NCBI GenBank assembly: GCA_036785375.1
Contig: JAWMAR010000175.1
Coordinates: 2,976,001 to 3,040,000, forward strand
Reading direction: 5' to 3'
Length of the DNA: 64,000 bases
From: Leucoraja ocellata
Taxonomy: Eukaryota
A program made the translations under genes and the position numbers. Below are positions 36,588 through 38,312 of the stretch, piece after piece. Numbering within the stretch: the stretch's first letter is position 1; each line of letters opens with the position of its first letter. The notes under the pieces are model-generated. The model saw only the letters and a list, made by a program, of their open reading frames with translations. It searched no databases and was not told the origin of the DNA.

Positions 36588-36920
36588 TATATCACCAGAT
36601 GTTTCTAAAACATGAAAAGGCATGACATACTTGTATTGCAGTTCCTCATACAAAACCTTGAGCACTAGAGACAGCTCAACAACGTTTAACGACGTTTTAA
36701 TGGTACCACAATTACATTTAAAAATACATTGGGAAAGGTACATGGGTTGGAAAGATTCAGAGGGATATGGGCCAAACACGGACAGGGCTAGTGTAGATGA
36801 GGCATGTTGGTCGGGATGGGCAAGATGGGCCAGAGGGCCTGTTTCCATGTTGTATGAATCTATTTAGTTTACTTCAGGTTTTGATTTTGAAATGGGCCAA
36901 ACTACCACATGAACTGTGAT

Positions 36921-37486
36921 GTTTAAGAAGGAACTGCAGATGCTGGAAAATCGAAGGTAGATAAAAATGCTGGAGAAACTCAGCGGGTGCAGCAGCATCT
37001 ATGGAGCGAAGGAAATAGGCAACGTTTCGGGCCGAAACCCAAAGGGTTTCGGCCCGAAACGTTGCCTATTTCCTTGTGTAAAATCATCCACATATTTTAT
37101 TAACGTACTTTCTAAGGGTATGCCTTCCAAATCTGCCTTTAATATCTGATTGAAGACATGGGGTGAGTGTTTGAATCCCTGCGGCATCCTAGTATAGGTG
37201 TATTGAGTACCTCTACAGGTAAAACCAAACAAATACTGACCTTGCTCTGCTAAGGGTACAGTGAAGAATGCGTAGGGTGGGGGGGGGGGGGGGGAGCGGG
37301 AGGAAGAAAGGAAGAGGAGCCAGAGGGTTGAGGGAGAGCTGACCCACCCTACATCAGTCTGAGGAAGGGTTTCAGCCCAAAACGTTGCCTATTTCCTTCC
37401 CTCCATAGATTCTGCTGCACCCGCTGAGTTTCTCCAGCATTTTTATCTACCTTCGATTTTCCAGCATCTGCAGTTCCTTCTTAAAC
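36921..37486. mobile_element. Composite Penelope family B insert enclosing a foreign fragment
   Basis: Outer ends GTTTAAGAAGGAAC ... GTTCCTTCTTAAAC inverted; several internal orientation switches. Confidence 0.85.
37081..37272 (-). pseudogene. pol: Orphan endogenous-retrovirus reverse-transcriptase core fragment
   Basis: AFFTVPLAEQGQYLFGFTCRGTQYTYTRMPQGFKHSPHVFNQILKADLEGIPLESTLIKYVDD: AFF, PQG..SP and YVDD motifs with retroviral spacing. Confidence 0.88.
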
Positions 37487-37624
37487 ATGATGGAGTAACT
37501 CGGCAGGTCAGGCTCTGGAGACAAAGGATAGGTGTCCGTATTCTCCAGAGATGCTGCCTGAGCCACTGAGTTACTCCAAACTTTCTTTGCTGGAGCAGGC
37601 GTGGTGATACGGTGCATGGGGAGT

Positions 37625-38312
37625 GAGGGTGTGAGGCCCACTCACCATCAACAACACCATAGTCACATCTGTGGAGTCATTTAACTTGCTTGGAACCATC
37701 ATCTCCAAGGACCTTAAATGGGGGGCCACCATCGACTCCACAGTCAAAAAGGCCCAACAGAGGATGTACTTCCTGCAGCAGCTGAGAAAACACAATCTGC
37801 CACAGGTAATGATGGTCCAATTCTACACGGCCATCGTAGAGTCTGTCCTCGCCTTCTCCATCATGGTCTGGTTTGGCTCAGCCACCAAGCACGACACCTG
37901 GAGGCTGCAGCGAATCGTCCAATCAGCAGAGAAGGTTATTGGCTGCAACCTTCCCTCCATTGACGAACTGTACACTGCAAGGGCCAGGAAGCGAGTGGGT
38001 AAGATCATCTCTGACCTCTCTCACCCTGGCCACAAACTCTTTGAATCACTTCCCTCTGGAAGGCGACTCCGGACTGTCAAAGCCACCACAGCCAGACATA
38101 AAAACAGCTTTTTTTCCACGAGCAGTAGCTCCACTCAACAACAAAGTCTGTAGCCTCCTTTTGCTCTGGTATTTTATTTCATTCTTCACATGTGTAAATT
38201 ATAACGTATTATTTTTACTGTATATCGCGTTGTACTTGCGAGCAAAGCACCAAGGCAAATTCATTGTATGTGTACATACTTGGCTAATAGCATTTATTCA
38301 ATTCAATTCAAT
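37625..38312 (+). mobile_element. Rex1/Babar-type LINE 3' fragment
   Basis: VESF.LLGTIISKDLKW...KKAQQRMYFL...SHPGH.LF..LPSGRRLR; (ATTCA)n tail. Confidence 0.85.

Follow-up and report, generated by a model that had tools for sequence, protein, structure and literature searches.

A 191-nt fragment of an endogenous retrovirus (ERV) reverse transcriptase (RT) is enclosed in an insertion of Penelope family B in the genome of Leucoraja ocellata, and this piece may well have been captured from a provirus of the same subfamily 58 kb away, either as DNA or as a local transcript. The insertion lies in a 64,000-nt stretch of contig JAWMAR010000175.1 (assembly GCA_036785375.1, positions 2,976,001 to 3,040,000 of the forward strand), which is referred to as the window and whose numbering is used throughout unless a contig is named.

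The RT fragment and its Penelope surroundings

Translation of the window revealed on the minus strand, from 37271 to 37083, a stop-free stretch of 63 codons running from AFF via MPQGFKHSP to YVDD, as had been described in an earlier interpretation of the letters alone (the sequence-only reading), and this stretch matched the Pfam family RVT_1 with an E-value of 5.5e-10, above the curated cut-off. The extent of the piece given in Table 1 is that of its DNA homology with other ERV copies. It is a class I (MLV-like) ERV RT fragment, whereby the class I call rests on the parent family, as MLV and foamy types are not separable by the 63-aa fragment alone. No second RT-like match occurred anywhere in the 64,000 nt, nor were further pol, LTR, or body pieces of the parent ERV family found in the window, in line with the earlier statement that it holds no other retroviral gene or LTR. 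Compared to ten ungapped ERV copies, the fragment has 4 private changes in 189 nt. Its plus-strand reading is antisense, like the surrounding Penelope segments, and it represents an internal piece, not an RNA 3′ end. No microhomology was found at either ERV junction, and the end of the fragment is not matched by the continuation of any ERV copy. A protein product was considered and rejected, since the 129-codon stop-free frame arises only by running into Penelope sequence. The fragment is single and dead and has no function of its own.

Table 1. Features of the insertion and its right flank, in window positions
Feature	Position	Strand	Basis
Penelope family-B 3′ arm with tail, leftward; lacks the 5′ half of the hammerhead core	36919..37040	-	
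AAA palindrome centre; the genome contains 156 exact copies of this 31-nt centre (78 forward, 78 reverse)	37041..37043	.	
Short arm of 32 nt with full complementarity to the left arm; stops within the family-wide break zone, 29-36 nt from the centre	37044..37075	+	
5-nt junction, not ERV; resembles a natural untailed family-B arm end (hint only)	37076..37080	.	
Class I ERV RT fragment, AFF to YVDD	37081..37271	-	DNA homology, Pfam, and RT profile scores
71-nt family-B segment originating just upstream of the hammerhead; inverted relative to the right arm, overlapping its start by about 9 nt	37272..37342	-	
Penelope family-B 3′ arm with tail, rightward; damaged minimal hammerhead at 37359-37386; carries all 4 arm-to-arm differences	37343..37488	+	
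Older related palindromic repeat forming the right flank; outside the insertion	37489..37578	.	

The fragment is set between family-B segments on both sides that switch orientation three times, which bears out the several switches noted before. In element sense, which was fixed by the GIY-YIG frame of a longer family-B copy, the flanks read minus, plus, minus, plus (Table 1). The outer arms are 122-nt inverted repeats with 97% complementarity. About 62 nt of the 71-nt segment are found in neither arm, and thus a Penelope template would have been used right beside the ERV piece. The variant in the 5 junction bases differs from that of the long arms; the arms agree in 20 of 23 palindromes. These 5 bases hint at an untailed family-B arm end left after an internal deletion, in which case a palindrome might once have been situated within ERV DNA. 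To the right of the insertion, open frames of 136-172 codons were observed on the plus strand at 37626-38150, which probably represent the 3′ part of a LINE.

Longer copies of family B yielded GIY-YIG matches in two cases (E 3.5e-4 and 1.4e-3) and an RT match upstream (E 0.018), all of them below the curated cut-offs and in broken copies. Family B is thus predicted to be an EN+ Penelope-like family, in which the RT is followed by a C-terminal GIY-YIG endonuclease. An inverted pLTR arrangement with tailed and untailed arms is a feature of the family. The insert had been called hammerhead-bearing, and this holds for remnants only, as no complete hammerhead is left in it. We take an intact core to consist of CUGAnGA ... 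GAAA around helix II and the mutated G to belong to it. Both halves of the core are present in a single copy (37359-37386), whose GAAA is mutated by G>A at 37379; the other two copies are truncated and lack the 5′ half. A search with the Rfam hammerhead at E<=5 found none, and folding of the hammerhead region gave z-scores of -0.5 and -0.9. The minimal hammerhead motif is described in passages of PMC4209133.

The parent ERV family and a remnant 58 kb away

In a DNA search for the parent of the fragment, 40 of 122 candidates were scored, and the best other copy was 93% identical. The parent is, as judged from these copies, a decayed multi-copy class I ERV family; no exact donor was found. Its RT frame (locus L033) scored 187 bits with the MLV-type profile, compared to 104 for foamy, 90 for Ty3, and 61 or less for HIV, which supports the earlier assignment of the fragment to vertebrate retroviruses. 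Nine copies that were read over 10 kb are broken proviruses with pieces of protease, RT, tether, RNase H, and integrase, and the Pol order PR-RT-tether-RNase H-IN was pieced together from several broken copies and close homologues, with a weak protease match (E 8e-4). Past IN, a frame of locus L036 holds a CX6CC motif, which we take to be a remnant of the retroviral transmembrane (env) protein, together with a hydrophobic anchor; Pfam GP41 matched only at E 0.17. Direct repeats of 320-630 nt with 84-92% identity, which are candidate LTRs with undefined ends, flank L036, L038, and L039 and cross-match one another. Among named sequences, one from Mobula comes nearest to the parent Pol (75%). With its MLV-like RT, tether and RNase H, integrase, and CX6CC remnant, the family resembles class I (gamma/epsilon-like) ERVs and is placed at the level of class, not genus. 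Epsilon-like lineages are known in the elephant shark according to passages of PMC4422223; compared to the class I ERVs described there, only a fragment is present in the window.

A lokiretrovirus was rejected as the source: in 15 passages of PMC7947760, the RT motif before YVDD is PFG(Y/L)xNSP, mostly RCPFGY, in contrast to MPQGFKHSP in the fragment. PF00523 (paramyxovirus fusion protein-like Env) had no match in the genome, and its control likewise matched nowhere. Also rejected was a multi-copy chimeric element, as family-B arms were present at 0 of the 19 RT-matching loci fetched and the junction is unique at 2 mismatches. Near-identical truncated pieces of the parent family are repeated within large segmental duplications on C929, C577, and C1569. 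A second retroviral family, about 56% identical in the captured RT stretch, was noticed at C23:6847200-6857190 and in further matches; its terminal repeats of 948 nt, which are identical to each other, and its open frames reaching about 1340 aa point to a recent invasion.

A remnant of the same ERV subfamily is located at C175:3070873-3071938, 58 kb from the insert. It carries 15 of 15 subfamily diagnostic sites, and the captured fragment 16 of 17. The captured region itself is covered by a private 477-nt deletion (RT core) of this neighbour, so that fragment and neighbour cannot be compared there; the deletion junction was spanned by none of the other copies among the 40 scored candidates. 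The neighbour has lost most of its provirus, and the absence of any one piece is therefore not rare. The divergence profiles weakly agree, the neighbour being divergent upstream of the deletion and central downstream, and the fragment likewise in its 5′ versus its 3′ part. If copies were placed uniformly, one would fall this close (58 kb) with a chance of 0.4% given 122 copies in all, or 1% given 300; across the whole 464 kb searched it is 1.6-4%, the proximity having been found post hoc. ERV copies do cluster, with two on C352 lying 51 kb apart, while 0 of 58 distant 10-kb tiles contained parent-family pol. No other locus in the genome is within 3 mismatches of the first 30 nt of the fragment, the assembly contains no source locus that shares the junction, and no Penelope remnant was found at the neighbour's deletion junction. 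The fragment ends about 100 and 180 nt inside the ends of the deletion, and a search within 200 kb did not recover the parts trimmed off. The neighbour belongs to a shattered remnant (C175:3069308-3071938) whose start directly follows a (GATA)n array with a family-B arm in it.

Probable origin of the ERV piece

We favour a local donor over a jump onto ERV RNA of arbitrary origin, because a same-subfamily remnant lies 58 kb away and this proximity has a chance of only about 0.4-1%; with a local donor available, no RT jump onto a diffusible RNA is needed. We infer one two-ended integration, with strand switching at the break zone and with this local donor. Priming on Penelope RNA at both ends of the break would have produced the two tailed arms. 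Synthesis of the left strand would have stopped 32 nt beyond the palindrome centre, in the usual zone, would then have run through the ERV piece and back to Penelope for 71 nt, and would finally have been joined to the right arm. It is also conceivable, although quite unlikely, that a Penelope palindrome once lay beside YVDD in the neighbouring provirus, was copied to the present site together with 191 nt of flank, and later brought about the 477-nt deletion by which the source was lost, so that integration would reach into chromatin tens of kb away. If this were true, Penelope integration would regularly involve the copying of nearby sequence at a fixed break zone, scattering pieces of proviruses and genes around their origin.

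Among the competing explanations, one that is possible, if less than probable, is that the Penelope RT jumped onto RNA or cDNA of an unlinked, then-active ERV copy or of an exogenous virus, and then back. The antisense plus-strand polarity of the ERV piece matches that of the Penelope segments, the piece is stop-free with few private changes, microhomology is absent, and the lack of an exact donor would be expected for a lost or exogenous template. However, polarity agrees by chance half of the time, the piece is internal instead of being an RNA 3′ end, and the neighbouring same-subfamily remnant would be left as a coincidence of 0.4-4%. A jump of the Penelope RT onto ERV RNA or cDNA had been the proposal of the sequence-only reading; from it the retroviral piece, the likely single insertion, and a cDNA-like polarity are retained, but an RNA or cDNA template no longer follows, given the candidate donor 58 kb away. 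Nor does expression of a related ERV in the germ line follow, since the local remnant could serve as donor without diffusible RNA.

It is improbable that host end-joining patched a break with free DNA, i.e., ERV cDNA or a piece excised from the neighbour, during or after the insertion and without involvement of the Penelope RT in the copying. The size would fit the templated insertions of about 50-300 bp at breaks reported in passages of PMC11724301, the private deletion of the neighbour could supply the piece, and the left junction falls at the hairpin break zone. Yet a later patch would leave unexplained why a 71-nt Penelope segment abuts the ERV piece, and the positions of the fragment ends inside the deletion, with trimmed parts absent within 200 kb, speak against an excised piece. 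Furthermore, the yeast insertions in those passages are of the copy-paste type, without loss of the donor.

Still less probable is a pre-existing ERV remnant that came to be flanked by two separate Penelope insertions, with deletions removing the rest. Such a scenario would be in accordance with the tails at both ends and the lack of a clear target-site duplication (TSD), which also counts against a single event: the insert ends share only 3-4 nt, whereas TSDs of 11-19 nt were seen in 21 of the 38 palindromes that were scanned. These ends could also be read as a TSD of 14 nt from which 7 nt were later lost. Family B is also dense, with 87 clusters in about 1.04 Mb. On the other hand, a variant present in 2 of 100 other copies is common to both outer arms, the window contains no other ERV trace, and the fragment is no more decayed than the arms, which differ at 4 positions over two 122-nt arms and are thus comparable with the private changes of the fragment. 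Because the two arms share this rare variant, the insert is most likely the product of one Penelope insertion event.

An assembly error at the left RT junction is hardly credible: no contig bridging 37075/37081 was among the matches listed, but the fragment must end somewhere and its end fits no ERV copy's continuation, and short-read contigs span the other three of the four main junctions. The sequence-only reading had made its proposal depend on reads that span the junctions, and contigs from short reads do so at the right RT junction and both outer junctions. Two runs of one sample yielded contigs across the right RT junction (37173-37342 with 0 differences, 37098-37342 with 1 difference), and contigs of the same sample bridge both outer junctions; this sample may be the individual that was assembled. 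A run under another species label contains the left outer junction with 2 differences and also matches the fragment over 87 nt with 0 differences, a stretch that takes in 2 of the 4 private sites, which suggests that the insertion is common to more than one species. No joint skipping the insert was present among the matches listed, beside which there are 845 others. Run X17 had no depth on the unique left flank.

Family-B palindromes in the genome and known captures

Exact palindrome centres of family B occur 3162 times in the genome. A census of foreign fillers, as envisaged for family-B palindromes in general, covered the 70 AAA-centred loci, which correspond to 65 distinct ones; 50 palindromes from C1/C2, many of them within tandem arrays, were excluded from the counts. 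An arm ending 29-36 nt from the centre was present in 29 of the 70, whereby many of these are short slips and not truncations. A foreign stretch of at least 50 nt between family-B parts was found in 4 of the 65 distinct loci. Two of these (L297 and L299) are likely later insertions of what we presume to be LINEs, with 3′ tails and 5-nt duplications, one (L226) is complex, and one (L242/L281) is bounded by TSDs. Captures thus number at most 2 of 65, none retroviral by inspection. The donor search for the L297 filler returned a high-copy repeat only. The L242/L281 insert offers a parallel to the present case: about 510 nt of it recur at L241/L280, at a distance of 85-90 kb in a duplicated region (C34, 8.01-8.28 Mb); as a family-B palindrome plus this stretch occurs here in two flank settings, a local transduction is possible. 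In 98 random tiles (978 kb) there were 195 clusters, 13 of them outward-facing with gaps of at least 25 nt.

Several further patterns were observed. The same 26-27 nt non-Penelope spacer follows a 31-nt short arm at L214, L222, L223, L224, and L228 on four contigs, sometimes in tandem, and these units look like a mobilised composite. On C1, at about 20.1-22.5 Mb and in this region only, dozens of family-B palindrome centres are joined to tandem arrays of a 66-nt arm fragment. The AAA-centre variant is clustered, with 11 of 100 listed places within 0.55 Mb of C70 (5.95-6.50 Mb) and others on C23, C34, C48, C119, and C133, which suggests local spread or duplication. LINE-like 3′ ends lie in family-B arms at L297:1257-1415, L299 (about 1125-1185), and L314; in L297 and L299 they are close to the break zone.

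The capture of foreign sequence by Penelope elements, for which the sequence-only reading argued, is already published: passages of PMC3846280 describe EN-containing Penelope elements of Adineta vaga with unrelated sequence captured between pLTRs, for which template jumps were proposed. As in our case, foreign sequence is enclosed by direct or inverted Penelope ends, with palindromes at inverted junctions; the present insert differs by its retroviral cargo, by a candidate local donor, and by lacking a clear TSD and an empty allele, both of which are described there for the NRPS case. Tandem and inverted insertions of Penelope-like elements with a 30-40 bp tail appear in passages of PMC8557442, and the inverted 5′-truncated copy, the tail, and the hammerhead in the pLTR are shared with them, while here both ends are tailed and three orientation switches and a foreign piece are present. 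In size and in its mixed pieces, the insert is also like the templated insertions at double-strand breaks, including those of retroelement cDNA, in passages of PMC11724301, except that in our case the patch alternates with segments of Penelope cDNA. For a Penelope protein in vitro, passages of PMC11167929 report that initiation occurs internally and that cleavage by the hammerhead is dispensable. In the literature searched, with partial coverage, no Penelope insertion was found to be described as containing an ERV fragment.

The type of capture is therefore known, the retroviral cargo is a curiosity, and the nearby candidate donor is a useful lead. The dense palindromes of cartilaginous fish record how Penelope elements finish their integration. 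Since the cargo is of low copy number, its donor is traceable, and the evidence leads to a locus close by. Should donors generally be local, captured fillers would not be indicative of germ-line expression, and orphan ERV fragments could be by-products of another element.
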